From a virus (taxonomy: Duplodnaviria; Heunggongvirae; Uroviricota; Caudoviricetes), in IMG/VR virus record IMGVR_UViG_3300027710_000009: a stretch of 64,000 nucleotides of DNA; one strand, 5' to 3'. A program made the position numbers and the translations under genes. Shown piece after piece: positions 26,743-63,974 of this stretch; position 1 is the stretch's first letter, and each line of letters begins with the position of its first letter. Under the pieces are notes generated by a model. The model worked only from the letters and a program-made list of their open reading frames with translations, did not search any database and was not told the origin of the DNA.

Positions 26743-26773
26743 TTTGAATTCTCCAATGCGTAATTGATATCAA

Positions 26774-26838
26774 TATTTATAGGTGCAGTTTTAGCTGGCA
26801 TTGATTTCTCTAAGCACTTGCTCTACACACATTAAATA
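26774..26838. promoter_or_regulatory. Back-to-back T4-late-like promoters for the two sugar operons
   Basis: TATAAATA on minus (26774-26781); TAAATA on plus (26833-26838). Confidence 0.55.
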
Positions 26839-26879
26839 GCTATACTCAACACTATACATTATTTTTCAATGGAGCACAA

Positions 26880-31371: not shown

Positions 31372-31425
31372 GTCAGCCTTTCAGTTTAGTTGGATAATGT
31401 ATTATACTACCTACTGAATTAAAAA

Positions 31426-32874: not shown

Positions 32875-32878
32875 ATGA

Positions 32879-34300
32879 TTAGGTTCTTAACAGCCCTCGC
32901 TGTACCTTCATGGTCACAGGGTGCATGGGTATTTTATCAATGATTTCTATTAGTTTAGGACGTTCGTGCGATTCTAGTTTACTGGTGTGAAATTTAATTT
33001 TGCTTTGTAATACTGATAGATCTATTGTGTGTGTTGGTACTATGCAAACTTTTACACAACTCAGTCCATTATCGTCAATGGCATGTACTGCAACAACCTC
33101 ATCAACTTCTGACAGTTCTCTAATGGTATCTTCAATCTTAATCGGGCTAACAAACTTACCCGAAGTTTTGAAAGTGTCTTTGCTACGACCTTGCATGTAA
33201 AAGTAATCTTGTTTCTTTATTAAAATATCGCGAGTGGTCAACCAACCATCTACAAGACTGGCAATGCCTTCAGTTATTTCTCTCACAGCATTACATTTGG
33301 TTTTCATCCAAATTTCACCAGGCTCGTTATCCTGCACAACATTACCTTGAGCATCGCGCAGTTCAAGTTCTAGTTCGCTGTCAAATATTTTCAATGCTCC
33401 CCACGGATCACCTGGCATTCTAGCAAGCGAAAGACCATTTTGACTACTTCCAAGGAAATTATGCAAGTGGGTGCCGTATTCTTCTTGCCATTGTTGTTGT
33501 AATCTAATAGAGCATAAATCACCAGACGAGGCACATACATTAGGTACCGCATGTTTTGGTAATGCTTTTCTTCTTAGCAACACAGAATATACCGGAGGAC
33601 TAGAAGCAAAATTTGTTACTTTGTATTTTACAATGTTGTTGGATACTATGCTTGGCGAAAATGGTCGAGACTCGACTACTAATCCTGCATCTCCTAACAG
33701 GGCCGCATGCAACATCATTAGACCAAAAGTGGTTTCTATCGGGGCCACAGTGTACACCACACCATTTTCAATTTGTTCGCCTTGGTGTTTGGCCAAGCGA
33801 ATACCAACATGAAACATACTGCGATGAGAATGTACTAGCCCATCTGCTTTACCGCCGGTGCCGCTTGACCAGCTGATGCATAATTCGTCATCAGGCTGTG
33901 CATGAATAGTGGTGTACATGTCCAAATTTTGGTCGTACTTGGATAGATTTTCAATTATGATAGTACGTAAGGTGCCCAACGACTCATAGTGTTCGTTGGT
34001 AATAATTGTATTGCATTGAGATAATCTACACCGTCTTTGTACTTCTTCTGCAGGAAGTCGACGTGGCAGTTGAACATACGTTATACCCAGTTGTGTTAGT
34101 GCTAGTCTTATTGCAACTCCAGCAATACTATCTGGATATACTATACCTACAGATTTTTGACCAATCAAATGTTTGAAATCAAATGCAAGTTTAGCAACTA
34201 GTATTGTTAAATTTTGATATGAGATTGATCCAGTTTCGTCATAAACTGCTATGCGATCAGGTGACGCAAGTGCAGTGGATTTTATTTGTTCAATAATCAT
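32879..34300 (-). CDS. Adenylate-forming (ANL/acyl-CoA ligase-like) protein, paralog 1
   Basis: WSSGTGG, GEIW, QGRSKDTFKTSGKFVSP..IED, TMKVQR; collinear with the neighbour. Confidence 0.75.
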   Translation of the reverse strand: MIIEQIKSTALASPDRIAVYDETGSISYQNLTILVAKLAFDFKHLIGQKSVGIVYPDSIAGVAIRLALTQLGITYVQLPRRLPAEEVQRRCRLSQCNTIITNEHYESLGTLRTIIIENLSKYDQNLDMYTTIHAQPDDELCISWSSGTGGKADGLVHSHRSMFHVGIRLAKHQGEQIENGVVYTVAPIETTFGLMMLHAALLGDAGLVVESRPFSPSIVSNNIVKYKVTNFASSPPVYSVLLRRKALPKHAVPNVCASSGDLCSIRLQQQWQEEYGTHLHNFLGSSQNGLSLARMPGDPWGALKIFDSELELELRDAQGNVVQDNEPGEIWMKTKCNAVREITEGIASLVDGWLTTRDILIKKQDYFYMQGRSKDTFKTSGKFVSPIKIEDTIRELSEVDEVVAVHAIDDNGLSCVKVCIVPTHTIDLSVLQSKIKFHTSKLESHERPKLIEIIDKIPMHPVTMKVQRGLLRT

Positions 34301-34301
34301 G

Positions 34302-35171
34302 TTAGTCTTTGCGTACCACGTTGGTTAGGTCATAGTGTGGTACTGCTGCCAGTGGTTTAGCATCAGCACACATGGTGCAGATTTTAGTGTTGGGTTTGCC
34401 AATGTCTTGCACAAAAGCTTCTATATCATCGTTGATTCCGTAGCCTTTGTAGCTCAAATAGTCTTGCCATGGTGCATTATCTAATAATCCTTGAAGTTCC
34501 AGGATATCTTTAAGATTGGCAATTGGTGCGCATTTATACAATCTGTTTTTGTACAACTGTGGATTGCGAGGAGATGAACAAATTGAATGTGCAGCCACTG
34601 GATCTTTTGATCTCCATGGACGTATTAACATTCCTGTGCCGTGATAGGTTCTAACAAACTCGCTGTACACAGCCATCTTTACACTGACACTGTCCTGTTC
34701 CATGTCTAGATATACATCATCAACAATTTGTGGATGCTTGTTTGTCCATTTACCATGTGCGTTGATTAATGCGTGTGTTCGATGTTGTAGTAAATCAAAT
34801 GACGGACCAATATTCCAATGACAACTGATCCATAATGTGGCATTGCCCACTTGTTTGAGCATGGCAATAGGATCAACAGTTTCAAAGTGCTCTCCATTGG
34901 TCACTAGCTTTATATGTGCATCTGGCCAATGATCACGAGCAGATTTAATAATTTCTGCTAGGTCAGGATTCAGTGTTGGCTCACCACCAGTTATTACCAA
35001 GGTGTCCATGGAGATTTTTTCACTCCAGGCTTGCATCCACTCAGTGGCATCAGACAACGTCACCGACCCTTCGGATCTATTGTGATCACTCATGCTGTTG
35101 CATCCTCTGCATTGCAGAGTGCATGCATGCTCAACAGTAAATTCCAGTAAGGGTAGGTGATGTTTTGTCAT
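34302..35171 (-). CDS. Radical SAM protein
   Basis: CTLQCRGC, TGGEPTLNP, VTNG, additional C-terminal Cys. Confidence 0.85.
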   Translation of the reverse strand: MTKHHLPLLEFTVEHACTLQCRGCNSMSDHNRSEGSVTLSDATEWMQAWSEKISMDTLVITGGEPTLNPDLAEIIKSARDHWPDAHIKLVTNGEHFETVDPIAMLKQVGNATLWISCHWNIGPSFDLLQHRTHALINAHGKWTNKHPQIVDDVYLDMEQDSVSVKMAVYSEFVRTYHGTGMLIRPWRSKDPVAAHSICSSPRNPQLYKNRLYKCAPIANLKDILELQGLLDNAPWQDYLSYKGYGINDDIEAFVQDIGKPNTKICTMCADAKPLAAVPHYDLTNVVRKD

Positions 35172-38518: not shown

Positions 38519-39364
38519 TTAGGACCCAGCGGCTGACAAGCGGGCCGCAAGCTGATTTAGGGCCGCACCAATGGTGCTTACGTTGCTGGTCCACTGCTGA
38601 TAATTGGCCATGGTAAAAGTGGCCGCTACACTTATGCTGTCTAGTAGCGAAGGACTCAGTGCAATATTGTTGATGGCCACGTTGGCCGCCGCAATGTTGG
38701 CTTGCAGTGAACTGATAGCAGAATTGGCCGCTGTGACGTTTGCTCTTACGTCTGCCACTGCCACGTTGGTAGCAAAGGTCACACCTTGTGTGCTGATAGC
38801 AGAGTTTACTGCTGTGATGTTGGCAGTGAGTTGTTCAATATTTGCAAATCCAGATCCTGTTACAAAACTAGCAATAGCCAAATTGGCGGCTGTGATGCTG
38901 GATTGTAGTGCTGTGATGTTGGCATTGGCCAACACAATGGCTTCGTTTTGAATTGTGGCGTTGCCAAACAACAGACCAATCTGTACATTTGCAGCCTCAA
39001 CGTTGGCACGAACTCCTGCAATGTTGGCAAAAATCACAGTGGCATTACTTGCCAAAGTAAATGCATCAATTGCCGCTTGTTGTACAACAGCATTGGATTG
39101 CAAGGCCACAATAGCATTGGACTGAGTGGCAGCATTGGCTTGTAACACTGTGATTGTTGTGGCTTGATTGGCAGCATTGGCAGTGAGTGAACTGATGCTG
39201 GCGTTTACTGCACTGGCGTTGGCAAGTGGAACACCGCCAGCTGTGACACCGTCGTGTACAACCACCACGTGCTTAACTGTGTCTACTGTGATTTCGCCGT
39301 TGGCGCCCACAAAATTTGCATGTTCTGCTGTGGTTCCTCTGCGGTATATTACTTGCTTGGCCAT
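38519..39364 (-). CDS. Fibre protein: Mtd_N-like anchor plus Asn/Ala coiled coil
   Basis: QVIYRRGTTAEH..FVG..GEITVDT...VHDG.TAGG; heptads with Asn at d. Confidence 0.75.
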   Translation of the reverse strand: MAKQVIYRRGTTAEHANFVGANGEITVDTVKHVVVVHDGVTAGGVPLANASAVNASISSLTANAANQATTITVLQANAATQSNAIVALQSNAVVQQAAIDAFTLASNATVIFANIAGVRANVEAANVQIGLLFGNATIQNEAIVLANANITALQSSITAANLAIASFVTGSGFANIEQLTANITAVNSAISTQGVTFATNVAVADVRANVTAANSAISSLQANIAAANVAINNIALSPSLLDSISVAATFTMANYQQWTSNVSTIGAALNQLAARLSAAGS

Positions 39365-42395: not shown

Positions 42396-45188
42396 TTAGT
42401 CAAAATGATTCTTTGTTTCTGAACCATAAAACACCTTGGCGGTCCATTGAACAATCACAGTTTCATTGTCGAAATAGCTGCCTCGGTAGTACAGTTTGCG
42501 TTCTGAATTGTTGACGTTGTATGGTCTTTCCCAGAAGCTTTCGTCCTCAACGCTAAAACCACTTTGAGTTTCTGAGTGGGTGACTCTGTTGTCAGAATCG
42601 TCCTTGGCAATCATGATCTGTCCAATAAAATTACCGGCATCGTCACTGGCGAACGCATGGTAGTCAATTACAGCGCCGCGGAAATTGTATGGACCATTTG
42701 GCAGGTCTGCCGCGTCCCACCATAACACAGGTGCGGCAGGCACGCCTATTGTCATGGATACCGCACCCACATTGGCTGTGGGTCGGAACGGAGTGCTGTC
42801 ACTGGTGAAGTTTATGGTGCCAACATCGTTGGCTCTGTTGTAACCAGTTATGCGATACACAGTTGATGTATTGCTGAATCTCAAGGACGGCGGATTGTTT
42901 ACAAAATTGCTGTCATCGTCCCATCGAGCCAATGCCTCATCAAGCCCAGCGTAGGTGGCCGCATTAATGGTAACTGAATTGCCGCTGGCAATGTTGGCCG
43001 CTAATGCCACGCTGGTAAACTCGTCACCGCCGGGCCATTCAATCACCGCCATGCCCGACACTTGTTCACAACGCCATTCGTTTGCAGGATAGATACCAGC
43101 ATAGCCTGGGCTGGTGTGTCGTGCCAGTACCGGAGTGTAGGCTGTGATTTGTGTTGTGCCATCAGCAAAGCGAATGCCTGGCTGATAGTCAGGATTGATT
43201 TCTCTGCGTGTGTATTGTAAAAATGGTTCGTCACCGTTGTTGTAGCCTGTGAACTTGATGGCAAAGTAACGATCTGTGGCAATGTCTTTCATGACCAATA
43301 GTGCGCCAACAATGTTTTGTTGAAAGCTACTGTTTTCGTCGTAGGCAAGAGCACGATAAAAATTAGTGTATGATCTGTCTCTTACATTGCTAAAATCATC
43401 CCAGCCATCTGTGTTCCAAACTGTGCCCCGAGGAGCCACTCTGTCTTGATCATAATCAAGGTCAGCAGGTGTCTCCTGTGCGATGTTGTACAGATTTTCA
43501 CCTTCAACACGAGTCAACACCACATTGGCTGTGATTTCATCAGAGAGTTCGTCGCCTGCGTTCACAATAGTAAAGGTCACAGGATCGCCAATGTACCAGT
43601 CAGCCGCACCAGTCAGCTGAATATTGCCAGTTGCAGGCATGCTGCCTGCAACACTTGAGCCACGGTAGGCCACATCCACAAAGCCTGTCATGGTGATGTC
43701 GTTGTTGTCAACCACACGAGTCCAGGTCTGCAAGTCTGTTGATGTCAACAGGTCGTCGTCAAGGTTGCCCACAAAAGCCACATTGCCCACAATGGCCACG
43801 CCAGTGATTGGCCAACCATGACTCCATGTCAGTGTGGCATTGCCTGAGATTGCGCCCAGGTTGGCCCAGGCTTCAGCATTGGCCAAAGTGGTCATTGCAG
43901 GATTGGTATAGATGGTATATGTGTCTATTCCAGCGTTAGCGCCAAGATATTGTGTATAGTATGTGCCGTTGTAGCCAGACACTGATGCATTGGAAATGGT
44001 GATGCGTTCGGCTTCACTTTGGTCCCAGATCTGCCATTCACTGCTAGGAATTTCAATTGTTGACAAGGCAGCATCAATGGCCACAATGTTTGCAGTATAA
44101 GGAGCAGGCACAGATACAACATAACTGACACCGTTGTCACGAGTTGCAGCCACAGCACCTGTGTGGGCGCCAAACATGTGCCAGTTTGATGTATTGCCCT
44201 CAAAGGTGATTGGACCGCTGGCCTGTGCTACAAAGCCGTAACCTTCGTTGTCAGGTATGTACTTCAGTGTGTCATAAACCGCAGCCGCAACGTTGGAATT
44301 GGCGCTCCAGGTGGCAGTTGGTGTTGCAGTGATTGCCACATTGGCATTGCTGGAGAAGCGAGCACGGCCAAGGTTATTGTCGATTGACCCATCAAATGCC
44401 ACCCAGCTGTTGCCGGACCAGCCCACATGGTCAAGATCTAGGCCAAGTTCATCGGTCCAAGTGTCTTCTGCATATATCTGTGCAGTTGTGATGTCTGACA
44501 CAAAAAAACCGTCGCCGGGGCCTCCACCAAAATCTTTATTACCAAACAGCCAACCAGTGCCATTGTACGCCACTCGATTAAATTGCACCCCACCTTCTTG
44601 CTGGCCTCGTATGGTCCAGTTGTAGCCGTCCTCACTGTAGGCCCAGGCTGGTCCATTTGGACCTTCACCTATGAGATACCCACAGGCCACATAGTAGCCA
44701 CCGCCATAGATCACATCCAGCCAAAAGAGATAATAATCCTGGGCGTCAATGTTCACAGACAGGGTGTTGACCAGTTCAACTGGCTTGCTTTGGACATTTG
44801 GAGCATAGAACAAACATGGATCGCCGTTGCTGGTTTGACCAACATAGACCACTGCATCAGGTCCAATGGCCACGCTACGGCACAGTGTGCCGTTGTCTTC
44901 ACCCATGCCAATTTCATAAGTGGGTGTCCAGGTTTCAGCGTCATGACTGTAGCTGGTTCCGCCCGAGGAGTTCACGGCAATCCACAAGGGTTTGTTTGTG
45001 ATATCTGTTTCAGTCAACCCGCCTGCAGAAGCAGAGGAATATTCCAAACTGACCCATGGAGTAGAGCCATCACCGTATTTTACCCGGTTTGTGTTGGTTT
45101 CCAAGCCAGGTTCGCCCTGTGCTAGAGTAGGGTTGGTTGCTGTCCAGTTTGCCGCTGTGTCGCGTCGGATTTGTATTTTACTTGCCAT
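42396..45188 (-). CDS. Fibre/spike protein with Mtd_N-like anchor and possible beta-propeller
   Basis: KIQIRRDTAANWTATNPTLAQGEPGLET..RVKYGDG; Asp-box-like SxDGxxW repeats; acidic. Confidence 0.75.
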   Translation of the reverse strand: MASKIQIRRDTAANWTATNPTLAQGEPGLETNTNRVKYGDGSTPWVSLEYSSASAGGLTETDITNKPLWIAVNSSGGTSYSHDAETWTPTYEIGMGEDNGTLCRSVAIGPDAVVYVGQTSNGDPCLFYAPNVQSKPVELVNTLSVNIDAQDYYLFWLDVIYGGGYYVACGYLIGEGPNGPAWAYSEDGYNWTIRGQQEGGVQFNRVAYNGTGWLFGNKDFGGGPGDGFFVSDITTAQIYAEDTWTDELGLDLDHVGWSGNSWVAFDGSIDNNLGRARFSSNANVAITATPTATWSANSNVAAAVYDTLKYIPDNEGYGFVAQASGPITFEGNTSNWHMFGAHTGAVAATRDNGVSYVVSVPAPYTANIVAIDAALSTIEIPSSEWQIWDQSEAERITISNASVSGYNGTYYTQYLGANAGIDTYTIYTNPAMTTLANAEAWANLGAISGNATLTWSHGWPITGVAIVGNVAFVGNLDDDLLTSTDLQTWTRVVDNNDITMTGFVDVAYRGSSVAGSMPATGNIQLTGAADWYIGDPVTFTIVNAGDELSDEITANVVLTRVEGENLYNIAQETPADLDYDQDRVAPRGTVWNTDGWDDFSNVRDRSYTNFYRALAYDENSSFQQNIVGALLVMKDIATDRYFAIKFTGYNNGDEPFLQYTRREINPDYQPGIRFADGTTQITAYTPVLARHTSPGYAGIYPANEWRCEQVSGMAVIEWPGGDEFTSVALAANIASGNSVTINAATYAGLDEALARWDDDSNFVNNPPSLRFSNTSTVYRITGYNRANDVGTINFTSDSTPFRPTANVGAVSMTIGVPAAPVLWWDAADLPNGPYNFRGAVIDYHAFASDDAGNFIGQIMIAKDDSDNRVTHSETQSGFSVEDESFWERPYNVNNSERKLYYRGSYFDNETVIVQWTAKVFYGSETKNHFD

Positions 45189-48290: not shown

Positions 48291-51200
48291 TTATCCATAA
48301 CTGCTTTGTTGTCCTAGCACACGATAAGTACCGTTGCCTAGGTTTATCAAACTGATACTGACAATGTCAGTGTTGCTGGCTGTGCCTGTTGGTACTGTTG
48401 TGCCTGCCCATCTGATTGTTTGTACGCTGCCACCATTTATTTGAAGATTGGCAATGCGATAAGGAGTAGCGCCTTGATCAATGATCACAGTAAAGCCAGT
48501 CACTGTTGATAGACTGTTTGCAATACCCACAATATTAGCTGTAACGTTGGCAGTGAGCGCGGCATAGAACACTGAACTGTTTGCAAAGTTGAATGTGATA
48601 TTGCCACCTGTGTTAGACACATTGCTGTATGTTTCGTAATAGGAAGCAGTCTGTATTATGTTGCCTGTGGTCATCACACCATTGCTGAGGAAGCTGGTTA
48701 CATAGGCACCTGCTGTGATTGTGGTGTTGCTGGTAGCACCAATGATGTTGCCCACACCTGAAATGTTACCAGCTGATGTGATTGCAATGTTAGCAGTACC
48801 AGAAATATAACCACCTGCAATAACTGCATTGGATGTGTATATGTTTGTGGTATTAACGTTACCTGTGGTTATCGAACCAGTGCCTGACCCAACACTCACT
48901 GCCACTGTGGATGCACCCATGTTGATTGTGGTTGCCGCACCACCCAAGTTGATAGTGGTTGCAGTGGTGTTAAACAATGCGCCAACAGACTGTGATGTTA
49001 TCAAACCACCAGCACCAGCAATGGTCATTGTACCTGCACTGGCAATACTAATACTGTTTTGTGTTGCAAAAGTACTGCCGTTCAAGCTCGCCCATAATCC
49101 AAATCCTTGGACTGAGCCTGCTGTTACAGCACCAGTTGTACCAGCCCAGCTAAAACTACCGCCGCTTATAGAGAACTGTGCGGCTCCGGTTTGTGTGTTT
49201 CTAGCATACATTGCACCATTGGCACCAAAGTAAGCATTGTTTAAGATATAGGTGCCGCCAAGTTGATTGCTACCTGCTCCAATTGTGGTTGTGTTACCAA
49301 TAAACGTTTGTGTAACGTTGGCCTGTAGCGCAGGTCTTGTGACAGGGTTACCAAGGTATATGGCTGTGTTGGCTGCTAGATACGCTGCTACATCTGCATT
49401 GGCATAACTACCTCCACCGCCTGCTACAGTTGATAATATGTTTACGCCATTAGCAAATACCACTGCTTTGTCGTTGGGTATAATCAAGTTGCCGGTTTTG
49501 ATTTCAAGGCCCGCGCTGGTTATCACTGTTCTCTGACCATTGTTGGTAAAGATTTCAACACTTCCAGCTTTGACACCGTATCCATCTTGGCCGTTGCGAT
49601 ACACAGTGATGTCGTTGTCAGCCCAGAGTCTAAACTCCCCGTTGTTGCTGATGGTAGCAGTATTTCCAAATGTGGTTACACCATTGGCTTGTAGCGCAAC
49701 TTCGCTGCCACCGTTGGTTAGTCTGGTGGTTGCATTTGCCGCTGTCTGGAACGCACTGAGTGGAACTGATTTCCAAATTGCAGGCTGAGTTGGATTGGTC
49801 AGTGTGGCGTTACCGCCTGTGGGCGAGCCGTACGGGGTACCAACCCAGGTAATCTGCCAACTGCCGTATCCATCATCGGATATGGTATCAATGGTAAAAT
49901 CGTACCCGCCTTGACTAACGATCCATCCCACTTGTGGAGTTGGGTATGCACCTTGTGTTATAAACAGCGTGTTACTAACTGCACCGCCCCAACCCACTAT
50001 GTAGACATTTGAAGCAAAGGTGCTGGTGCAATAGTAAATGTAGTTGCTGTCCACGCGAACCATGCCAGCTCGGTCGCCTGCGGATCCTGACAGTGTGCTG
50101 GGTGCAGGTCCTGACACTATCAAGTTGGCCACATTTGCTGTGCCAGTTGCTGTTACATTGCCAACATTGATGTCCACATTGCCAAACGCCAAGGGAGCAG
50201 AGTATCGTATTTCAAACGAATTGGTTACACCGTTGACTGCATAGCTGTATCCTAACAATCCGTAACTAAAATCACCAGTGGCATCACTATAGGTTTCAGT
50301 GGTAACTGATGTGCTGATACTGGTCACACCTGTGATTGTGTCAAATATGTTTACGCCATTGGCAAAGTTGTACTGTGTGGCAGTAACATTGCCGTTGGCA
50401 GTGATGCTGGTCACACCATCAATCACACTGGTGGCACTAGAATCAAATATTAAATTACCACCAGTTGGGAATGTTAATGTACCGTCTGCGTCAAAGATCC
50501 ATTCAATGAATGCTTCAGGACCGGTGGTGGCTCCAGTTTGAATAGCAACAGCACCAGTTGTGTCATTGAACGCAACCAAGGCTATGTTGCCTGGTTCAAA
50601 TTCAAACTCACTCCAGCCAATATAGGTAGCGGCATTGCCGGTTGTGGCCACTGTGATCTCAGCATTGGCCTGTGATATTATGGTGCCAGAACCAAGTGGG
50701 TTTGACCCTATTATTAAGTTGCTTGGGAATGTTAGGCTACCAGCATAATCAAAGTTCCATTGATTAGAGTAGTCATCGCCTGTGCGTAGAGTTACATTAC
50801 CACCGTTGTGTGCTATACCATTATATCCTAATCCACCAGATATTATGGTGTCACCACCCGGTATACTACAGCCCTGGGTGTGACCTGCGGTGATGTATAA
50901 ATCGGTTCCTGGACCATTGCCAAATCCGCGATTGGGCTGATCAAGGTTACCTGTGATTGTTAGGTTACCGGCAGTGATATTACCAGTGGCTGGGAATGTT
51001 GTTGTACCGTTGGAATAGAATACATAGTCTGTGGTGTCGGCTGTGATGGTTACATTGGTACCTAGGCCTGTGATATCACTGCCAGAAAATGTGATGTCGC
51101 CGGTGCTGGCTGCAAGATTGCTCAGTATGCTTACACCATTGCTGAATTGGTAAGCAGGACTTCGTATGGAGTCCGTCACTGTGATCACATCCACATTGCC

Positions 51201-51839
51201 AATTCGTGCTGTGCTTGAAGTAAATTCAATGTCCCCATCAAATTCTAACAGGTAACTGGCCACAGTGGCATTTGAGTATGTGCCAGCACCCACTGTGCTG
51301 AGTATGTTTACACCGTTGGCAAAGTTGATGTTGCCATCGGTAGGTAATGTCAAGGTGCCATCTGTGCCAAAGGTCCAAGAATATTGAGTGCTGTTACCTT
51401 GTGAGGCGATTTCAACTCCGCCTCCCCAAGGAAGTTTTACATAATTACTGTCATCACCTAAGAATAAATCAAGGGCCTGCTGTCCACCTTTCATTATATG
51501 GAAATGATCAGCTAGGCCAATTTCAGGACTGTTGCCCAGCAATATTGTACCACGGTCCGTGGTTATTGGTACACCAGAGAAAGTATCAGCATCTCCTATG
51601 GTAGAACCGTTTGGTAATGTTAATGCACCAGTTGATTCAAGACTAACTGTGTTTGCACCGTTGACCAATGTGCTGCCGCTGGTAGTGGCATAGGCCAGTG
51701 CAGTCCAGACTGTGTTGCCATCACCATACTTGACCCGGTTGGTGTCTATTTCTAAACCTGGTTCTCCATCCTCTAGAACAGGATTGACTCTGGTCCAGTT
51801 AGCGGCTGTGTCTCTTCGTAGTTGTATTCTATTTGCCAT
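48291..51839 (-). CDS. Long fibre protein with Mtd_N-like anchor
   Basis: RIQLRRDTAANWTRVNPVLEDGEPGLE; repeated F.NGV.I and W.F..DG.LTLP modules. Confidence 0.8.
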   Translation of the reverse strand: MANRIQLRRDTAANWTRVNPVLEDGEPGLEIDTNRVKYGDGNTVWTALAYATTSGSTLVNGANTVSLESTGALTLPNGSTIGDADTFSGVPITTDRGTILLGNSPEIGLADHFHIMKGGQQALDLFLGDDSNYVKLPWGGGVEIASQGNSTQYSWTFGTDGTLTLPTDGNINFANGVNILSTVGAGTYSNATVASYLLEFDGDIEFTSSTARIGNVDVITVTDSIRSPAYQFSNGVSILSNLAASTGDITFSGSDITGLGTNVTITADTTDYVFYSNGTTTFPATGNITAGNLTITGNLDQPNRGFGNGPGTDLYITAGHTQGCSIPGGDTIISGGLGYNGIAHNGGNVTLRTGDDYSNQWNFDYAGSLTFPSNLIIGSNPLGSGTIISQANAEITVATTGNAATYIGWSEFEFEPGNIALVAFNDTTGAVAIQTGATTGPEAFIEWIFDADGTLTFPTGGNLIFDSSATSVIDGVTSITANGNVTATQYNFANGVNIFDTITGVTSISTSVTTETYSDATGDFSYGLLGYSYAVNGVTNSFEIRYSAPLAFGNVDINVGNVTATGTANVANLIVSGPAPSTLSGSAGDRAGMVRVDSNYIYYCTSTFASNVYIVGWGGAVSNTLFITQGAYPTPQVGWIVSQGGYDFTIDTISDDGYGSWQITWVGTPYGSPTGGNATLTNPTQPAIWKSVPLSAFQTAANATTRLTNGGSEVALQANGVTTFGNTATISNNGEFRLWADNDITVYRNGQDGYGVKAGSVEIFTNNGQRTVITSAGLEIKTGNLIIPNDKAVVFANGVNILSTVAGGGGSYANADVAAYLAANTAIYLGNPVTRPALQANVTQTFIGNTTTIGAGSNQLGGTYILNNAYFGANGAMYARNTQTGAAQFSISGGSFSWAGTTGAVTAGSVQGFGLWASLNGSTFATQNSISIASAGTMTIAGAGGLITSQSVGALFNTTATTINLGGAATTINMGASTVAVSVGSGTGSITTGNVNTTNIYTSNAVIAGGYISGTANIAITSAGNISGVGNIIGATSNTTITAGAYVTSFLSNGVMTTGNIIQTASYYETYSNVSNTGGNITFNFANSSVFYAALTANVTANIVGIANSLSTVTGFTVIIDQGATPYRIANLQINGGSVQTIRWAGTTVPTGTASNTDIVSISLINLGNGTYRVLGQQSSYG

Positions 51840-58247: not shown

Positions 58248-58337
58248 TGGCGGAAGCGGTGAGATTCGAACTCACGGTGCCTTTCGACACGACAGTTTTC
58301 AAGACTGTTGCAATAAACCGGACTCTGCCACACTTCC
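58248..58337 (-). tRNA. tRNA-Ser(TGA)
   Basis: Cloverleaf, long variable arm, G73, encoded CCA. Confidence 0.93.
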
Positions 58338-58338
58338 A

Positions 58339-59508
58339 TTAGTTGTATAAATCTTGCAGGCGATATATGCCTGTGCGATCTAGATTTTTGTTCACGGCCA
58401 AATAGGCCAAGAGCCCGGCGTCATTGCGACGGACAAGCTCTTTTTGTATACTAGCATCAACGATGGCGTCAATTATATTTTTTTCGTCCAGCTCTAGTGT
58501 TAGTTTTAACAGTTGTATGTCCTTGAACGGCGTGAATGTAATAGTGCGTCCAAGATGCCAGTGCTGGTGATCGTTAATGCACATCCGCAGAATATGCTCC
58601 GCAGTTGTTTGTTTGCTTTGTATTACCTTTTGTATTTGTTCGTCCTGCTGTTGTCTTGCATAGATAGCAGATTTCTCTACACCTTGAAAGTACAGGTAAT
58701 GATAATGCTCAGGTTCTAACACCTGTTCCATATTTTTGCCTAGATGCATCAGCATGATATTTGCTGTTGCAGGCCCACGCAAAAAATACTCATCGCCACA
58801 GGCCCCAGTGACTAGAATAGTGGGCTTGCGGTAATGATGTATTTGGTTATAACCCCAGTGTTCACGCAACTGAGATTCAAAATTAATTGTGAACTGATCG
58901 TAGTCAGTGTGTTCAGCCATGATCAATTCATGTGGTATGTGCAGTGCTCGTAGATAACTGATACACAGCAAGGTATCGATGCCACCAGAGTAAAATACCT
59001 TGATGTTGTCTGCGTTTAGACCCAACCACGAAAACTTAGCAGTCAACAAGTTGTGCATTTCATCTACCACTTCAGTAAAACTGCGTGTGGACCCTGGCAC
59101 AGGAATCACTGTACAACGATGTTCATGTATGGTTTGATCAATAGTTACCCAGGCATCTGCCCATACGTTCACAGGATGTTGTACTTCAATGTTGCCAACT
59201 GCATGCTCGGCATCGTCACGAAACAGTGGTGTTGCTCTACTGGTATCATTGGTAACTGTCACTGTACCGTTTTTATGAGCTAGTACTGCTACAAAGTTAC
59301 CTTCAAATCTAGGCTGTGCATTTTCAAACAGTTCTTCTGCCAGCACATGATTGATGCCACGCTGAAAGCAATAGCCCTTGATGTATGCATAACCATACTG
59401 GGTGTGTATCTCTTGCCAACCTAGATCACAATTGAGCCAAAGTTCTTTGGTCAGCGGATACTGCGCAGGGAACTTGGTGTCTTGTGTGGGCTTGATACAA
59501 AAGAACAT
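58339..59508 (-). CDS. Asparagine-synthase-like protein (PP-loop ATP pyrophosphatase)
   Basis: VFYSGGIDT, TGACGDEYF, FTPF; degenerate N-terminal GATase-like region. Confidence 0.6.
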   Translation of the reverse strand: MFFCIKPTQDTKFPAQYPLTKELWLNCDLGWQEIHTQYGYAYIKGYCFQRGINHVLAEELFENAQPRFEGNFVAVLAHKNGTVTVTNDTSRATPLFRDDAEHAVGNIEVQHPVNVWADAWVTIDQTIHEHRCTVIPVPGSTRSFTEVVDEMHNLLTAKFSWLGLNADNIKVFYSGGIDTLLCISYLRALHIPHELIMAEHTDYDQFTINFESQLREHWGYNQIHHYRKPTILVTGACGDEYFLRGPATANIMLMHLGKNMEQVLEPEHYHYLYFQGVEKSAIYARQQQDEQIQKVIQSKQTTAEHILRMCINDHQHWHLGRTITFTPFKDIQLLKLTLELDEKNIIDAIVDASIQKELVRRNDAGLLAYLAVNKNLDRTGIYRLQDLYN

Positions 59509-59867
59509 TACTTTTGACTGTCGCCTTTTGCTACTCTGTAATTGTCTTCCACAGAGTCCGGTGTGCTGACTTCAATCACTGTGCCTGCTTCGACGCATTC
59601 CAGCTGATGAGGTTTGCAAGGTTCATTGTGCCATACACTACCATCACGCAGTTCTTTTTCGTGCAGTTCAGCAGTGGCAGTGTCAATCCAACGCACAATA
59701 AATCGTCCTGATTGCACATACCATGTTTCTTCTTTGAATTGATGAAAGTGCATACTGAACTTGGCGCCAGTATTAAAGTTCATCATCTTGCCGCAGTACT
59801 TGTCATTGGTAGCCCAGATAAATTCTGAACCCCACCCCTTGGGTACTAATCCTTTTAACTGTGTCAT
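59508..59867 (-). CDS. Cupin (sugar isomerase-like)
   Basis: KGWGSE, FSMHFH..KEETW, EVST.D...DNYR. Confidence 0.8.
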   Translation of the reverse strand: MTQLKGLVPKGWGSEFIWATNDKYCGKMMNFNTGAKFSMHFHQFKEETWYVQSGRFIVRWIDTATAELHEKELRDGSVWHNEPCKPHQLECVEAGTVIEVSTPDSVEDNYRVAKGDSQK

Positions 59868-60613
59868 CGTATTTCATCCAATCTTGGTGCATACACACCA
59901 GTGTGTTGTACAGTAACGGCGCTGGCACGAATAGCAAATAAAATTGCTTGACTCATGTCACCATCTGTATTTAGATATTCATATGCCAATGCTGCCAAGA
60001 ATGTATCACCGGCTCCACACACGTCAGTAACGTCTATTTCAGGCGCCGGATACATGACAAAATTGTGCAAAGCGCCTTCTTTACCCAGCGTTACAATCAT
60101 GTTTGTGCAATCGCTGTGTCTTGCCTTGTATTCAACTTCGTTGATCTTTACAATGCAACCTTCAAATCTTTTTAGATCCTGCTTTTTGGTGTCAATGAAA
60201 ATAGGACCCGGAAATTCTCTGCGTAGTTCTTCCACCAGCTCATATGTGATCAGGCCTTTGTTGTAGTCGCTGATCACAATGGCATGATACACTTGTGGTA
60301 TTGCTGTTTCAAACACTAGCGGATCGTTTTTGACATCAGCATCTATTCTAACAATCTGTTGCTTGCTACGACTGTCAATCAATCGTGTCTTGACACTTTG
60401 TTGCCCTGTGATAAAATTTGCATCTAGGCCAAGTGCTTTGAGATTTTCATATACATTGGCCGCCATGCCTGGGCGTTTTTCTTCTGTGGTGGGTGTGAAC
60501 ACAGGAACAGGTGCTTCTGGACTCATACGATCCACAACACCATATTGATAAACATCTAAACAACTGTCACCTAGTAACAATATGTTGAATTGCTTTTGTA
60601 CTGGAATACTCAT
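59864..60613 (-). CDS. HldE/RfaE domain I-like heptose-phosphate kinase (PfkB family)
   Basis: DRMSPEAPVPV, GMAANV, ISDYNKG, DVCGAGDTF. Confidence 0.85.
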   Translation of the reverse strand: MSIPVQKQFNILLLGDSCLDVYQYGVVDRMSPEAPVPVFTPTTEEKRPGMAANVYENLKALGLDANFITGQQSVKTRLIDSRSKQQIVRIDADVKNDPLVFETAIPQVYHAIVISDYNKGLITYELVEELRREFPGPIFIDTKKQDLKRFEGCIVKINEVEYKARHSDCTNMIVTLGKEGALHNFVMYPAPEIDVTDVCGAGDTFLAALAYEYLNTDGDMSQAILFAIRASAVTVQHTGVYAPRLDEIR

Positions 60614-60962
60614 CGAGTCTTTCAAAAAATTCAATGCGTGGCACATGTTCTTCACCAATGATTGGCCGACCACGATAGTCGCTGCCTTTGACCATGATGT
60701 CTGGCTCGCTTGTTTGGATCAGGTGTTCTAGTTCTTGATCTGTGTCAAAAGTACAAACCTTGTCCACGTACCTTAGAGCTTGCAACATTAGCCTGCGTTC
60801 ATCTTGATTGAAGAACGGACGGCCTGTGCCTTTTAGCTGTCGTACACGACGATCTGTATCTATAGCAACTGTTACCCTGCCAAGACTAGCCGCATACTGC
60901 AACAGCATCACATGCCCCGGATGCAGGATATCAAACGTACCATTGACGAACACTTTAATCAT
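60567..60962 (-). CDS. HldE/RfaE domain II-like nucleotidyltransferase
   Basis: FVNGTFDILHPGH, LKG.GRP, VKGSDY, SST; leaderless ATG 6 nt after TATAAT. Confidence 0.85.
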   Translation of the reverse strand: MIKVFVNGTFDILHPGHVMLLQYAASLGRVTVAIDTDRRVRQLKGTGRPFFNQDERRLMLQALRYVDKVCTFDTDQELEHLIQTSEPDIMVKGSDYRGRPIIGEEHVPRIEFFERLDEYSSTKAIQHIVTR

Positions 60963-61005
60963 TGTTACATTATATATTGTTGCACAAGCTTCGTCAATAG
61001 ATATT

Positions 61006-61079
61006 TGGTGCTCAAGTACAGAATCGAACTGTCGATTGCTCCTTACCATGGAGCCGTTATGCCACTTAACTACAAGAGC
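61006..61079 (-). tRNA. tRNA-Thr(GGT)
   Basis: Cloverleaf, CCA. Confidence 0.9.
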
Positions 61080-61080
61080 G

Positions 61081-61157
61081 TGGTACCCCTCCCCCGACTC
61101 GAACGGGGAACACACTCCTTTTGAGAGAGCCGCGTCTACCAATTGCGCCAGAGGGGT
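61081..61157 (-). tRNA. tRNA-Leu(CAA) with short variable loop
   Basis: Leu-type D-loop, A73, 5-nt variable region, CCA. Confidence 0.85.
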
Positions 61158-61163
61158 ATTGAG

Positions 61164-61239
61164 TGGTGGAAGTGGTGAGACTCGAACTCACGATAAACAC
61201 CGTATGAAGGTGGCGCATTAGCCACTATGCTACACTTCC
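61164..61239 (-). tRNA. tRNA-Met or Ile2 (CAT)
   Basis: Cloverleaf, anticodon loop TTCATAC, CCA. Confidence 0.85.
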
Positions 61240-61244
61240 TGAAA

Positions 61245-61321
61245 TGGCGACCCCGAAAGGATTTGAACCTCTGACATTTGGTTTTGGAGACCAACGTTCT
61301 GCCGGACTGAACTACGGAGCC
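61245..61321 (-). tRNA. tRNA-Trp(CCA)
   Basis: Cloverleaf, G73, CCA. Confidence 0.92.
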
Positions 61322-61326
61322 ATGTA

Positions 61327-61404
61327 TGGAGCAACGGGTGAGATTTGAACTCACGGTTTTCGGGATTTGCAATCCCGTGCATTGGGCCGCTCTGCCACCG
61401 TTGC
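61327..61404 (-). tRNA. tRNA-Cys(GCA)
   Basis: Cloverleaf, U73, CCA. Confidence 0.92.
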
Positions 61405-61408
61405 ATAT

Positions 61409-61482
61409 TGGTTGCGGGCCCAGGATTTGAACCTGGGATGCTCCTGGCTTATGAGACCGGAGTGGTGGCCGCCCTGCCCGCG
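61409..61482 (-). tRNA. Non-canonical initiator-type tRNA-fMet(CAT)
   Basis: C1:A72 mismatch, CGCGGG start, TTCAAAT T-loop, CTCATAA loop; reduced D-arm and bulged anticodon stem. Confidence 0.75.
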
Positions 61483-61489
61483 ATAATCT

Positions 61490-61581
61490 TGGCGGAAACG
61501 GAGAGATTCGAACTCTCGGTGCCAATTACTTGACACGACAGGTTAGCAACCTGCTGCCTTAGACCACTCGGCCACGTTTCC
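61490..61581 (-). tRNA. tRNA-Ser(GCT)
   Basis: Cloverleaf, long variable arm, CCA. Confidence 0.93.
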
Positions 61582-61591
61582 AGTTGTTTGT

Positions 61592-61620
61592 ATTATATAG
61601 TGATAGCACATTGCTGTCAA
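61592..61620 (-). promoter_or_regulatory. sigma70-type promoter inside the tRNA array
   Basis: TTGACA-17-TATAAT. Confidence 0.7.
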
Positions 61621-61629
61621 TGTTTATTT

Positions 61630-61705
61630 TGGTAGTTCCTAGCGGGCTTGAACCACTGACCTTTACGATGTCAACGTAACGCTCTACCAACTGAGCTAAG
61701 GAACT
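61630..61705 (-). tRNA. tRNA-Val(GAC)
   Basis: Cloverleaf, CCA. Confidence 0.92.
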
Positions 61706-61707
61706 GT

Positions 61708-61782
61708 TGGTACCGCTAGGAGGAATCGAACCTCCGTCTTAACCTTAGGAGTGTTTTGTTCTATCCACTGAACTATAGCGGT
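61708..61782 (-). tRNA. tRNA-Arg(CCT), weak anticodon stem
   Basis: Acceptor, D and T arms intact, A20; only 3 bp in the anticodon stem. Confidence 0.75.
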
Positions 61783-61988
61783 TTGTTTAGTTTTTTGATA
61801 TGCTCAATGTGGCGTTTGAATTCGCGCACATAGTAAGGATCTTTTTCCAGCATCTTGGCTAGATATCCTGCTAGAAAACCTGCATGATACAGCCTGTGCA
61901 TTCTTTCGTTGCCCTTGTATTCCACAGGACACACTGACTCTACACTTTGTTGTATAAACTTAACATAGTCTTCGTGTGAGTAGTCCAT
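61773..61988 (-). CDS. 71-aa hypothetical protein inside the tRNA array
   Basis: ATG 5 nt after TAAATA; stop lies within the 5' end of tRNA-Arg(CCT). Confidence 0.55.
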   Translation of the reverse strand: MDYSHEDYVKFIQQSVESVCPVEYKGNERMHRLYHAGFLAGYLAKMLEKDPYYVREFKRHIEHIKKLNKPL

Positions 61989-61999
61989 ACAAATATTTA

Positions 62000-62075
62000 T
62001 GGAGCCCCCTGAGGGATTCGAACCCCCGACTAACTGGTTCGAAGCCAGCTACTCTGTCCACTGAGTTAAAGGGGC
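62000..62075 (-). tRNA. tRNA-Arg(TCG)
   Basis: Cloverleaf, CCA. Confidence 0.9.
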
Positions 62076-62081
62076 AATGTG

Positions 62082-62157
62082 TGGTGCCAAGGACTGGACT
62101 CGAACCAGTAACACACGGATTTTCAATCTGCTGCTCTACCATTGGAGCTACCGAGGC
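62082..62157 (-). tRNA. tRNA-Phe(GAA)
   Basis: Cloverleaf, CCA. Confidence 0.9.
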
Positions 62158-62162
62158 ATGTT

Positions 62163-62237
62163 TGGGGAGAAGTACGGGAATCGAACCCGTGATAGCGGAA
62201 TCACAACCCGCGGTTTTGCCACTAAACTAACGACTCC
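62163..62237 (-). tRNA. tRNA-His(GTG)
   Basis: G-1:C73, CCA; two acceptor-stem mismatches. Confidence 0.85.
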
Positions 62238-62243
62238 ATTGAT

Positions 62244-62317
62244 TGGCACGGGAACTAGGGATCGAACCTAGGACGACAGAGTCAAAGTCTGTTGTGTTAC
62301 CGCTACACCATTCCCGA
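62244..62317 (-). tRNA. tRNA-Gln(TTG)
   Basis: Cloverleaf, G73, CCA. Confidence 0.9.
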
Positions 62318-62324
62318 ACAAAAC

Positions 62325-62401
62325 TGGCGCGACCAGCAGGATTCGAACCTACCACCCCAACGTTCGTAGCGTTGTACTCTATCCAAATGAGCTATGGTCG
62401 C
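62325..62401 (-). tRNA. tRNA-Arg(ACG)
   Basis: Cloverleaf, CCA. Confidence 0.92.
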
Positions 62402-62504
62402 ATAATTAGTGCTAGATTGTTTACTGCACAACCTAGCAAAGCAGGGGTCTGTAGACTGCATACAACTTGTCTCATTGTACTCCGTATGCAAGGGAGAGAT
62501 TGAA

Positions 62505-62722
62505 TTTGAGAGCCTACGCCGCGTTTATCGTAGATTTATTCAGGACTTACCGGCCGCCTAGCCTGACCTCGCTCGCGATGGATATCACTTGGGCGCCTGT
62601 CCAGTTAGCAACCAATCTGCACCGCTCTTCCGAGCAGCCGGGAGTTGAACCCGTCCCCTTTTACTATTTTGGTAGTTCGAACTTACCTAGATAGCGTGAC
62701 TGCGCTTGCTGACACTCTCAAA
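62505..62722 (-). ncRNA. Structured ~218-nt RNA with a permuted tRNA-like domain (YrlA-like)
   Basis: Terminal helix TTTGAGAG/CTCTCAAA; T-arm CGGG-TTCAACT-CCCG; GGAA-capped acceptor-like hairpin; D-like arm; second T-loop. Confidence 0.65.
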
Positions 62723-62725
62723 ACT

Positions 62726-62802
62726 TGGTCGGAGTACAAGGATTCGAACCTTGGACCCCCTGGTCCCAAACCAGGTGCGCTACCAGACTGCGCCACACTC
62801 CG
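62726..62802 (-). tRNA. tRNA-Pro(TGG)
   Basis: Cloverleaf, CCA. Confidence 0.93.
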
Positions 62803-62809
62803 AAATTGA

Positions 62810-62883
62810 TGGTGCCCCGTGACAGAATCGAACTGCCAACTACTGATTACAAAACAGTTGTTATACCACTTAACTAACAGGGC
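62810..62883 (-). tRNA. tRNA-Thr(TGT)
   Basis: Cloverleaf, CCA. Confidence 0.9.
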
Positions 62884-62890
62884 TTGAAAC

Positions 62891-62964
62891 TGGAGCGGGG
62901 TAGGAGAATCGAACTCCTCGCTTTAGCTTGGAAGGCTAAGGTATTACCACTATACGAACCCCGC
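62891..62964 (-). tRNA. tRNA-Gly(TCC)
   Basis: Cloverleaf, U73, CCA. Confidence 0.93.
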
Positions 62965-62973
62965 AATAAAATC

Positions 62974-63048
62974 TGGTGCATCGTGAGAGGGTCGAACTCC
63001 CGACATTCGCCGTGTAAAGGCGCTACTCTACCACTGAGTTAACGATGC
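62974..63048 (-). tRNA. tRNA-Val(TAC)
   Basis: Cloverleaf, CCA. Confidence 0.92.
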
Positions 63049-63053
63049 AATGT

Positions 63054-63128
63054 TGGTGGAGGATAGCGGGGTCGAACCGCTGACTGAAGCTTGCAAAGCT
63101 ACTGTGTTCCCAACTATACCAATCCCCC
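63054..63128 (-). tRNA. tRNA-Ala(TGC)
   Basis: G3:U70, CCA. Confidence 0.9.
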
Positions 63129-63135
63129 ATAACAC

Positions 63136-63211
63136 TGGCTCCACAGGGTGGGCTCGAACCACCGACCAAATGATTAACAGTCATCTACTCTACCAACTGA
63201 GCTACTGCGGA
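63136..63211 (-). tRNA. tRNA-Asn(GTT)
   Basis: Cloverleaf, G73, CCA. Confidence 0.93.
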
Positions 63212-63219
63212 ATAAAATC

Positions 63220-63295
63220 TGGAGCGGGCGAAGAGGTTCGAACTCTCGACATTTACCTTGGCAAGGTAATGCTCTACCAACTGAGCTACGCCCGC
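63220..63295 (-). tRNA. tRNA-Gly(GCC)
   Basis: Cloverleaf, U73, CCA. Confidence 0.93.
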
Positions 63296-63306
63296 ATGTG
63301 TTTTAC

Positions 63307-63528
63307 TTATTTGTCGCGAACTTTCTTCAAATATTCGCGACCTACTTTACCTTGTTCAATTTCTTCAAGCACTTGAATAATAGGACCATTTGTTGATACA
63401 ACTTTTGATCTATGTCCAGCTTTGATTTCTCTTAGTCTAGCTGATGCAATCAACACTAGGTCAAATTGATTACCTATCATTTGTGCTGCCTCTTGTGATG
63501 TTCTACCAGTGATGTATTCGTCGGACAT
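63307..63528 (-). CDS. rpoZ: RNA polymerase omega subunit homolog
   Basis: IGNQFDLVLIASARLREI...VLEEIEQGKVG matches the omega pattern (GNRFDLVL.AA.RAR...ALREI..G). Confidence 0.85.
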   Translation of the reverse strand: MSDEYITGRTSQEAAQMIGNQFDLVLIASARLREIKAGHRSKVVSTNGPIIQVLEEIEQGKVGREYLKKVRDK

Positions 63529-63552
63529 TAAGTTCCTTTGTTTTATTTACTT

Positions 63553-63581
63553 AGTATAACACACGATCATGCTAATTGCAA
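63553..63581 (-). promoter_or_regulatory. Promoter for rpoZ
   Basis: TTGCAA-17-TATACT, plus TAAATA at 63544-63549. Confidence 0.6.
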
Positions 63582-63656
63582 TGGTTGCCTATCTTGGGAA
63601 CGATCCAAGGACCCCCGCCTTATCAAGACGGTGCTCTACCACTGAGCTAATAGGCA
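63582..63656 (-). tRNA. tRNA-Ile(GAT), atypical T-loop
   Basis: Cloverleaf, T-loop ATCGTTC, CCA. Confidence 0.85.
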
Positions 63657-63660
63657 ATAA

Positions 63661-63824
63661 TACCATATGGAAACACACTAGTGAGCCAGTCTAACGCAGC
63701 CATCGCAACTTTGCAAGTCGTTTCCAACTTGTGTATCGTCTTTCTGGGCGAGCTGTATGTGTAGAGCTCCGCAAGTTCTCAATGCAATCGCTTGCAAGGA
63801 CAACTAGTATGTTTTCATATGGTA
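63661..63824 (-). ncRNA. Structured ~160-nt RNA with long terminal helix
   Basis: 22-nt imperfect terminal inverted repeat; internal GCGA- and GAAA-capped hairpins. Confidence 0.6.
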
Positions 63825-63895
63825 GAAGCAGTGGGACTCGAACCCACAACTATCCGGTTAAAAGCCGGGTACTCTAGCCATTGAGTTATGCTTCC
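63820..63895 (-). tRNA. tRNA-Lys(TTT)
   Basis: Cloverleaf, CCA. Confidence 0.92.
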
Positions 63896-63898
63896 ATA

Positions 63899-63974
63899 TG
63901 GTCCCTGCGGTCAGGCTCGAACTGACGACCAGCGGATTAAGAGTCCGTTGCGCTACCAACTGCGCCACACAGGG
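63899..63974 (-). tRNA. tRNA-Lys(CTT)
   Basis: Cloverleaf, CCA. Confidence 0.92.

Follow-up and report, generated by a model that had tools for sequence, protein, structure and literature searches.

A conserved family of phage tRNA(CAU) genes that carries initiator marks on a remodelled core

We analysed a 64,000-nt stretch of DNA from a virus of the Caudoviricetes (IMG/VR record IMGVR_UViG_3300027710_000009; "the window" below means this whole stretch), which is part of a large phage genome with 45.7 % GC, a DnaB-type helicase, Mtd_N tail fibres and sugar-nucleotide genes. Among the 25 tRNA genes arrayed on its minus strand is the subject of this report, an aberrant initiator-type gene at 61409-61482 (-). 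It is 74 nt long including an encoded CCA, and ARAGORN annotates it as tRNA-Met(cat), placing the anticodon at position 30 where 33-35 is usual. The sequence quoted for it throughout is the reverse complement of window 61409-61482. Spacers of 4 nt and 7 nt separate the gene from tRNA-Cys and tRNA-Ser, and all 22 array tRNAs with printed sequences share the encoded CCA. No other tRNA among the 25 is of initiator type, that is, has bases 1 and 72 unpaired.

The acceptor stem (CGCGGGC/GCCCGCA) ends in C1·A72, and 13 nt (A8-A20) lead from it to an anticodon stem (CUCCGGU/GCC(A)GGAG) of 7 bp with one bulged A and a U:G pair on the loop side. A previous sequence-only reading of the window had described the gene as an initiator tRNA of odd shape, and the features it listed are all present: C1·A72, A73, CAU, the tRNA(fMet) T loop, the 7-bp acceptor stem and the T stem, together with A8 in place of U8, the 13-nt D region, the 7-bp anticodon stem with its bulged A, and U:G as third pair. 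The "about 2 bp" it assigned to the D region are G9:C19 and G10:C18 (RNA numbering), followed by a conserved G11·A17. The minimum-free-energy fold of the gene contains the helices listed in Table 1 (-29.8 kcal/mol, z = -1.98), and 8 of 200 shuffled sequences fold equally well, which places the single-sequence fold only mildly above shuffles. The gene stands out from chance because it is conserved and covaries on many other contigs, and not because of this fold.

Table 1 Features of the aberrant tRNA gene and its array (window positions; RNA numbering from the first base of the tRNA).
Feature	Position	Strand	Basis
Whole aberrant initiator-type tRNA(CAU) gene	61409..61482	-	ARAGORN; (near-)identical copies on other contigs
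Acceptor stem 5' strand CGCGGGC (RNA 1-7), C1 opposite A72 unpaired	61476..61482	-	
A8, one connector base replacing U8 and N9	61475..61475	-	
Reduced D arm (RNA 9-19): G9:C19, G10:C18, G11·A17, loop CGGCC including GG	61464..61474	-	
A20 (column 22), putative partner C43 (column 45), 26·44-like non-Watson-Crick layer	61463..61463	-	
Anticodon arm (RNA 21-42): 7-bp stem, bulged A38 (RNA numbering), loop CUCAUAA	61441..61462	-	
Anticodon CAU (RNA 30-32)	61451..61453	-	
Short variable region CAUC (RNA 43-46)	61437..61440	-	
T arm CCAGG-UUCAAAU-CCUGG	61420..61436	-	
Acceptor 3' strand GCCCGCA, discriminator A73, encoded CCA	61409..61419	-	
Array of 25 tRNA genes, aberrant gene inside	58248..63974	-	ARAGORN, Rfam

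Close sequence relatives of the gene occur outside the GenBank phages. A near match to the tRNA array was not found among GenBank phages, and a distant search of them with the gene returned only matches of 47-52 % coverage to ordinary tRNA-Met genes, in five records. An exact 43-mer of the gene is present in two IMG/VR contigs (L001 and L002), where the gene is the same except for a compensatory change of C7:G66 to U7:A66 in L001 and the flanks are unalignable. A first scan of viral contigs for CGCGGG, a shortened gap, CUCAUAA and the initiator T loop found the spacing of the family in 45 of 53 loci. The same pattern, applied to one genome for each of 185,579 species, gave 28 matches, two of them with family spacing (L058 and L064), both on short contigs (3.5 and 11 kb) of metagenome-assembled genomes (MAGs); the remaining 26 are ordinary tRNA(fMet) 3' halves after unrelated 5' sequence and have no relation to the family. 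Scanning viral contigs for the U31:G39 pair and the T loop yielded an estimated ~330 loci, and among the 120 shown 24 have family spacing and 75 normal spacing. Those 24 include L099, a normal cloverleaf with a longer variable loop, and L143, a degenerate copy in which A4·C69 is mismatched and the D region altered. A family-specific pattern run on metagenome contigs gave at least 119 loci (~140 estimated), with family spacing in 119 of 119 by construction of the pattern. The viral and metagenome collections overlap, so that loci are not independent genomes; they hold 59 distinct family sequences, and the 74-nt form of the window is present in 26 loci. The aberrant gene is a member of a conserved, previously unannotated phage tRNA family, and not a decayed singleton.

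The scans also returned CAU genes with an initiator T loop whose 5' halves are reduced further than in the main family. In a 71-nt class (L005, L006, L016, L049 and L051), the anticodon stem is bulged and 8 bp long and the D region measures 11 nt; L028 lacks a D loop, and a 68-nt class (L007, L056, L057 and L081) is found in three alphaproteobacterial MAGs and one viral contig.

We aligned 57 distinct family sequences over 76 columns (alignment A3), excluding L223 and L110, which have indels in the T arm, as well as L099 and L143. The structure of Table 1, carried over to this alignment, pairs 98.2 % of cells, compared to 82.1 % in shuffled alignments (0 of 500 reach the observed value) and 32-52 % when the partners are slid. 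Changes on both sides are seen at 10 of the 20 pairs, and each of the four stems (acceptor, D, anticodon and T) has compensatory changes. RNAalifold, run without an imposed structure, gives the same helices, including the 2-bp D stem. The point that the sequence-only reading had put forward, an initiator-type tRNA with a real non-canonical fold, is supported. That reading had called for a search for homologs of the fold, and had held that a gene unique to this genome, devoid of compensatory changes and not expressed would be a pseudogene; instead, the fold recurs in more than 100 loci, with compensatory changes in the four stems.

The acceptor pairs 2:71 to 6:67 are invariant in all 57 sequences, and their 3' strand was imposed by no search pattern, while pair 7:66 occurs as five types (AU 18, UA 16, GC 13, GU 6, CG 4). 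The connector A8 is present in 57 of 57. In the D stem, columns 9:21 are GC throughout and columns 10:20 are GC in 46 sequences, UA in 10 and AC in one, the UA form appearing on four different D-loop backgrounds; columns 11:19 are G·A and the D-loop GG (columns 15-16) is kept in every member. The D loop is 5 nt long in the class of the window and 6 or 7 nt, mostly 7 nt, elsewhere. A D hairpin in another register (columns 10-12 with 19-21) was considered first, but it shows no compensatory change and 83.9 % pairing, and was replaced by 9:21 and 10:20. Columns 22 and 45 read A/C in 48 sequences and G/A in nine, with no mixed combinations; they look like the 26·44 layer of ordinary tRNAs and may pair.

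The two added pairs of the anticodon stem are unpaired in none of the sequences (columns 23:44, GC 38 and CG 19; columns 24:43, CG 38 and UA 19). Towards the loop, pair 29:41 (columns 27:39) is GC in 47 and AU in 10, whereas pairs 30:40 (columns 28:38) and 31:39 (columns 29:37) are GC and UG, respectively, in 57 of 57. Between classes, the two middle pairs of the stem change register with a one-base bulge (A, U or C). A bulge fixed after 5 bp or after 3 bp does not suit all sequences in either case, as it slides between classes. Within the 4-nt variable region (columns 45-48), A occupies column 46 in 55 of 57 sequences, U occupies column 47 in 54, and column 48 is always C; the T stem has 100 % of cells paired and covariation at three of its five pairs. 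These counts have to be read with the search patterns in mind: the CAU loop and the T-loop sequence were imposed across the family, U31, G39 and the T loop by the U31:G39 viral scan and the metagenome pattern, and GCGGG, A8, G9 and G11 by the metagenome pattern. The first viral scan left the D region and the loop-side stem free, and its family members show the same bases; A8 likewise recurs in family members of the first viral and U31:G39 scans, where the pattern left it free.

This architecture lies outside the standard tRNA model. At the gathering threshold of 29 bits, Rfam RF00005 lists 23 of the 25 ARAGORN tRNAs in the whole window, the aberrant gene not among them, and a search of a 751-nt sub-stretch at E<=10 returned no minus-strand tRNA match at its position. 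Six neighbouring tRNAs in that sub-search score 46.7-64.4 bits, and across both searches the neighbours have normal scores of 46.7-70.5 bits, so there is no general decay of the array. The other tRNA missing from the whole-window list, tRNA-Leu(CAA) at 61081-61157 (-), reaches 47 bits in the sub-search, and its omission looks like a filter effect rather than a second aberrant gene. RF00005 fails at the gathering score on all ten family members tested, the gene of the window and nine others; the best scores among these nine are 22.9 bits (L043) and 22.1 bits (L029), and seven have no match. As ARAGORN also misses several members (for example L003, L004, L008, L009 and L011), phage tRNA inventories probably under-count initiator tRNAs.

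The family retains the mark that sets initiators apart at the end of the acceptor stem. Bases 1 and 72 are unpaired in 54 of the 57 sequences, as C·A (37), U·U (8), A·A (6) or C·U (3): the unpaired state is retained while the bases vary. In bacteria, an unpaired 1:72 directs formylation and keeps EF-Tu off the tRNA. Initiators also have a purine 11 : pyrimidine 24 pair in the D stem (A11:U24 in E. coli). The putative equivalent in the family, columns 10:20, is G:C in the window gene and in 46 of 57, and U:A in 10 of 57.

The third mark, the run of three G-C pairs in the anticodon stem, reads G:C, G:C, U:G in the window gene. The sequence-only reading was right that the third G-C pair is lost, but gave the loss too much weight, because within the three-G-C rule only G30 of the middle pair is described as essential in E. 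coli in passages of PMC5389676, and G30:C40 is kept in 57 of 57. The same passages list natural au/GC/gu initiators in mycoplasmas and alpha-proteobacteria, and parts of PMC5389676 and PMC2528185 place 16S rRNA A1339 and G1338 in contact with pairs 29:41 and 30:40. Since G30:C40 is retained and au/GC/gu initiators exist in nature, the loss of the third pair does not disqualify the tRNA as an initiator. A further suggestion, that the tRNA suits leaderless mRNAs of the phage, finds no support in the window: a core Shine-Dalgarno motif lies at -20..-4 of 19 of its 57 open reading frames, whereas two control windows give 5 and 1. Of 51 same-strand neighbours, 28 overlap or are separated by at most 10 nt, which makes them internal cistrons.

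The window's 64 kb encode no translation or tRNA enzyme genes. Within its array, a second CAU tRNA at 61164-61239 (-), with G1:C72 and the loop UUCAUAC, is conserved in relatives (L001 1700-1774 and G005 274305-274379) and is a candidate elongator tRNA-Met or lysidine-type tRNA-Ile2; G005 has, in addition, a separate CUCAUAA elongator-type Met tRNA at 1530-1607. G005 is a 356-kb relative (CheckV 96 %) with 29 tRNAs and a two-piece tmRNA, and its aberrant gene is the sole tRNA of the 29 with unpaired 1:72, beside two G1:C72 CAU tRNAs. Peptide deformylase genes lie in two near-complete relatives, G005 (174996-175445, -) and G004 (258302-258730, -), as one would predict for phage proteins that begin with fMet. 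The MAG with a family member on an 11-kb contig has its own canonical initiator elsewhere.

Other features of these genomes were noted alongside. Permuted two-piece tmRNAs, whose tags begin ANANTF, occur in L001 (5212-5631), L029 (2205-2603) and G005 (278207-278623), and the matches to the Rfam Betaproteobacteria tmRNA model reach 94.6 and 98.2 bits against a gathering score of 84, which hints at betaproteobacteria-like hosts. A 92-nt "tRNA-Ile(tat)" in L001 (2815-2906) and G005 (272895-272986) has a long extra arm, an unusual combination with UAU; its L001 copy matches the tRNA-Sec model weakly, at 31.6 bits and below threshold. The window itself encodes three tail-fibre-like proteins that start with an Mtd_N domain, the N-terminal domain of the major tropism determinant (38519-39364, 42396-45188 and 48291-51839, -), Mtd being known from the targets of diversity-generating retroelements, and a cluster at 25711-35171 with an epimerase/dehydratase, a GDP-mannose 4,6-dehydratase, a DegT-type aminotransferase, two AMP-binding enzymes and a radical-SAM protein.

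In the reading that we favour, the phage probably uses this tRNA with its remodelled core as an initiator tRNA(fMet) of its own. Processing from the array transcript would follow that of the neighbouring tRNAs, and the host MetRS would charge the phage tRNA through CAU and A73. With 1:72 unpaired, the host formylase should accept the product and EF-Tu should reject it, after which IF2, IF3 and the P site would admit it by means of fMet and G30:C40. What the D arm loses in length the longer anticodon stem would make up for, giving an L shape of about the same length: by a simple counting of layers, the three layers of the D stem, the 22·45 layer and 7 bp approximate the 4 + 1 + 5 of a normal tRNA. 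As to why the core is remodelled, our preferred guess, and a weak one, is that it makes the tRNA differ from host tRNA(fMet) for some enzyme that binds the D arm or anticodon stem.

Several points weigh against initiator function. It is predicted from identity elements known in E. coli, and the marks are incomplete: 1:72 is a paired U:A in 3 of 57 and base 73 is U in 8 of 57 (A73 in 49), while the strict three-G-C rule (29:41, 30:40, 31:39) is broken by U:G at 31:39 in all members and by A:U at 29:41 in 10 of 57. Formylase and IF3 also touch the D stem or elbow, the latter through its N-terminal domain, which contacts the tRNA elbow according to parts of PMC9723500, and the reduced D arm might impair these steps. 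Formyl_trans_N and IF3_C were not found in G001-G005, four of these five records being fragments (6-86 % complete), so that the tRNA would depend on host enzymes. In at least one relative, L027/G004, a normally shaped C1·A72 tRNA is present as well, and the aberrant gene is there not the sole initiator. Several of the "invariant" positions (GCGGG, A8, G9, G11, U31, G39 and the T loop) were set by search patterns, and because the family members are related to one another, the cell counts exaggerate how many independent events there were. Expression has a weak hint in its favour: 20 public runs, with habitat labels of subsurface, lake and freshwater metagenomes, contain part of the array, six of them being metatranscriptomes, and contigs assembled from RNA libraries in two studies match with 0 differences over the gene (X15 record 3, 61395-61574; X16 record 11, 61409-61478) and run on into other flanks. 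These are assembled contigs only, carry-over of DNA is possible, and the array parts that they leave uncovered carry no information.

Among other explanations, one would refine the initiator reading without excluding it: the remodelled D arm, the anticodon stem and U31:G39 may have been selected to escape an enzyme that inactivates canonical tRNA(fMet), either a host defence or a phage host-shut-off enzyme, which would let the phage go on initiating. We regard this nuclease- or toxin-resistant initiator as possible but doubtful. The U31:G39 pair with the initiator T loop is common in viral contigs (the ~330 stretches estimated above), and in a sample of 401 genomes of the class of the MAG with the 11-kb contig its signature occurs in one, on that MAG's own phage-like contig, versus 317 with the canonical signature, a tally that includes four unpublished genomes. 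U31:G39 is therefore a phage trait in this comparison, but it does not alone explain the rebuilt core, and it is also found in normally shaped phage initiator-like tRNAs (75 of the 120 loci shown, among L084-L203). The family as a whole is nearly absent from cells, with the two short MAG contigs as the only members among the 28 cellular matches, and its odd D-region sequence is very strongly conserved. Enteric VapC cleaves tRNA(fMet) at A38|C39, as passages of PMC4105405 report; this bond reads A38|G39 in the phage tRNA, which is compatible with escape and does not show it. Against escape, the acceptor end, the target of acetyltransferase toxins, is unchanged, and the loci examined show no linkage of the tRNA to a nuclease, toxin or defence gene; a PIN domain was not found in G001-G005, an absence made weak by the four fragments among the five records. 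A related and equally tentative idea is an insulated initiator, whose core would have been rebuilt to suit the host MetRS, formylase, initiation factors and ribosome and yet evade an enzyme that disables the host's tRNA(fMet), be it part of a host defence or a shut-off weapon of the phage itself; if true, initiation in the infected cell would run on the phage tRNA alone.

It is improbable that the RNA stays outside translation and delivers no fMet, whether it sequesters a tRNA-binding enzyme or toxin as a decoy or sponge or has another tRNA-like role. A core so far from the tRNA consensus that RF00005 rejects every member tested would agree with this, and the conservation of the D region beyond the need for pairing (G·A, GG and A8 invariant) would fit a protein-binding site. 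However, a decoy need not have all the initiator marks together, with CAU in CUCAUAA, an unpaired 1:72 reached through four base combinations, G30:C40 and CCA, nor be the only initiator-type gene within a near-complete tRNA set, as in G005. A decaying pseudogene, or a remnant of a tRNA(fMet) gene left at an integration site, is very improbable. Its appeal lies in the low or absent tRNA-model score, in the one degenerate family copy (L143), and in the fact that bacterial genomes do hold tRNA(fMet) 3' halves behind unrelated 5' sequence; in the family, by contrast, the 5' half is not scrambled but conserved, in covariation with the 3' half, compensatory changes affect four stems, identical genes lie under unrelated flanks, and the spacing in the tRNA arrays is precise. 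The attachment-site remnant was rejected for the same gene on the further ground that the 26 of 28 cellular matches of that kind are unrelated to the family. We can scarcely credit an elongator tRNA-Met, or a CAU tRNA recoded by modification (a lysidine-type tRNA-Ile2), with an odd core: the paired U1:A72 in three sequences and the unmet strict three-G-C rule would allow it, but 1:72 is unpaired in the other 54, both the anticodon loop and the T loop have the initiator form, and separate G1:C72 CAU tRNAs would suit the elongator-Met and Ile2 roles (window 61164-61239; G005 1530-1607 and 274305-274379).

The probable role as a phage initiator tRNA matters because of the molecule concerned. Bacterial initiator tRNA is among the most conserved of RNAs, its core being read by MetRS, formylase, IF2, the N-terminal domain of IF3 (at the elbow), RNase P and the P site. 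A widespread natural family with initiator identity on a rebuilt junction of the D and anticodon arms would show the limits of what the initiation machinery accepts, and would offer a natural scaffold for work on orthogonal initiators. If the core was remodelled to evade a tRNA-targeting enzyme, the theme of phage tRNAs against defence would extend to initiator tRNA. A phage initiator tRNA of this architecture was not found described in the open full-text literature, which leaves subscription journals uncovered, and this negative is no proof that the family is unpublished.

Compared with E. coli-type tRNA(fMet), the phage tRNA has the same CAU in CUCAUAA, C1·A72, A73, G2:C71, C3:G70, G29:C41, G30:C40, UUCAAAU and CCA, part of which are described as identity elements in passages of PMC5389676 and PMC2528185. 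It differs in having A8 as its sole connector, without U8 and position 9, a D stem of two Watson-Crick pairs and G·A (4 bp in E. coli), a D loop of 5-7 nt (8-9 nt), a bulged anticodon stem of 7 bp (5 bp), U31:G39 in place of G31:C39, a 4-nt variable region, and in failing the Rfam tRNA model. The remaining initiator marks that the two have in common are likewise identity elements.

In architecture, the closest likeness is to tRNAs with a compact core, although this implies no kinship in sequence. In tRNA-Pyl and mitochondrial tRNA-Ser (mt-tRNA-Ser), the anticodon stem is longer than usual and one base alone forms the connector, and the phage tRNA, with its bulged 7-bp stem and sole connector A8, follows them in both. 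tRNA-Pyl is not known to have the D-loop GG or a standard T loop, both of which the phage family keeps. Parts of PMC11467909 describe a 5-nt D loop, a 3-nt variable loop and a compact core for tRNA-Pyl, which passages of PMC4394434 regard as a model for mt-tRNA-Ser(UGA); the short D loop (5-7 nt) and 4-nt variable region of the phage tRNA resemble those of tRNA-Pyl and mammalian mt-tRNA-Ser(UCN/UGA). These tRNAs, however, are elongators or suppressors of archaea, a few bacteria and mitochondria, with Pyl or Ser identity (anticodon CUA or UGA, and PylRS or a mitochondrial SerRS as cognate enzyme) and a plain 6-bp anticodon stem, whereas the phage tRNA has a bulged one, the anticodon CAU and the acceptor stem of an initiator.

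Variation in the three G-C pairs also has cellular precedents. Initiators of mycoplasmas and alpha-proteobacteria with au/GC/GC, GC/GC/gu and au/GC/gu are described in passages of PMC5389676, and, as in the phage family, the first and/or third pair is replaced and the middle G30:C40 kept. The third pair in these cellular tRNAs is G:U, with the purine on the 5' side, and they have a normal cloverleaf, in contrast to the U:G of the phage tRNA. Phages T5 and T4, lastly, have tRNAs that escape tRNA-targeting defences of the host through changes of a few bases in the anticodon loop or stem, on a normal cloverleaf and with the cognate nuclease known. The tRNA described here is, as are those, a phage copy of a host tRNA species that differs at sites a nuclease would recognise, but its whole core is rebuilt and it has no known nuclease.

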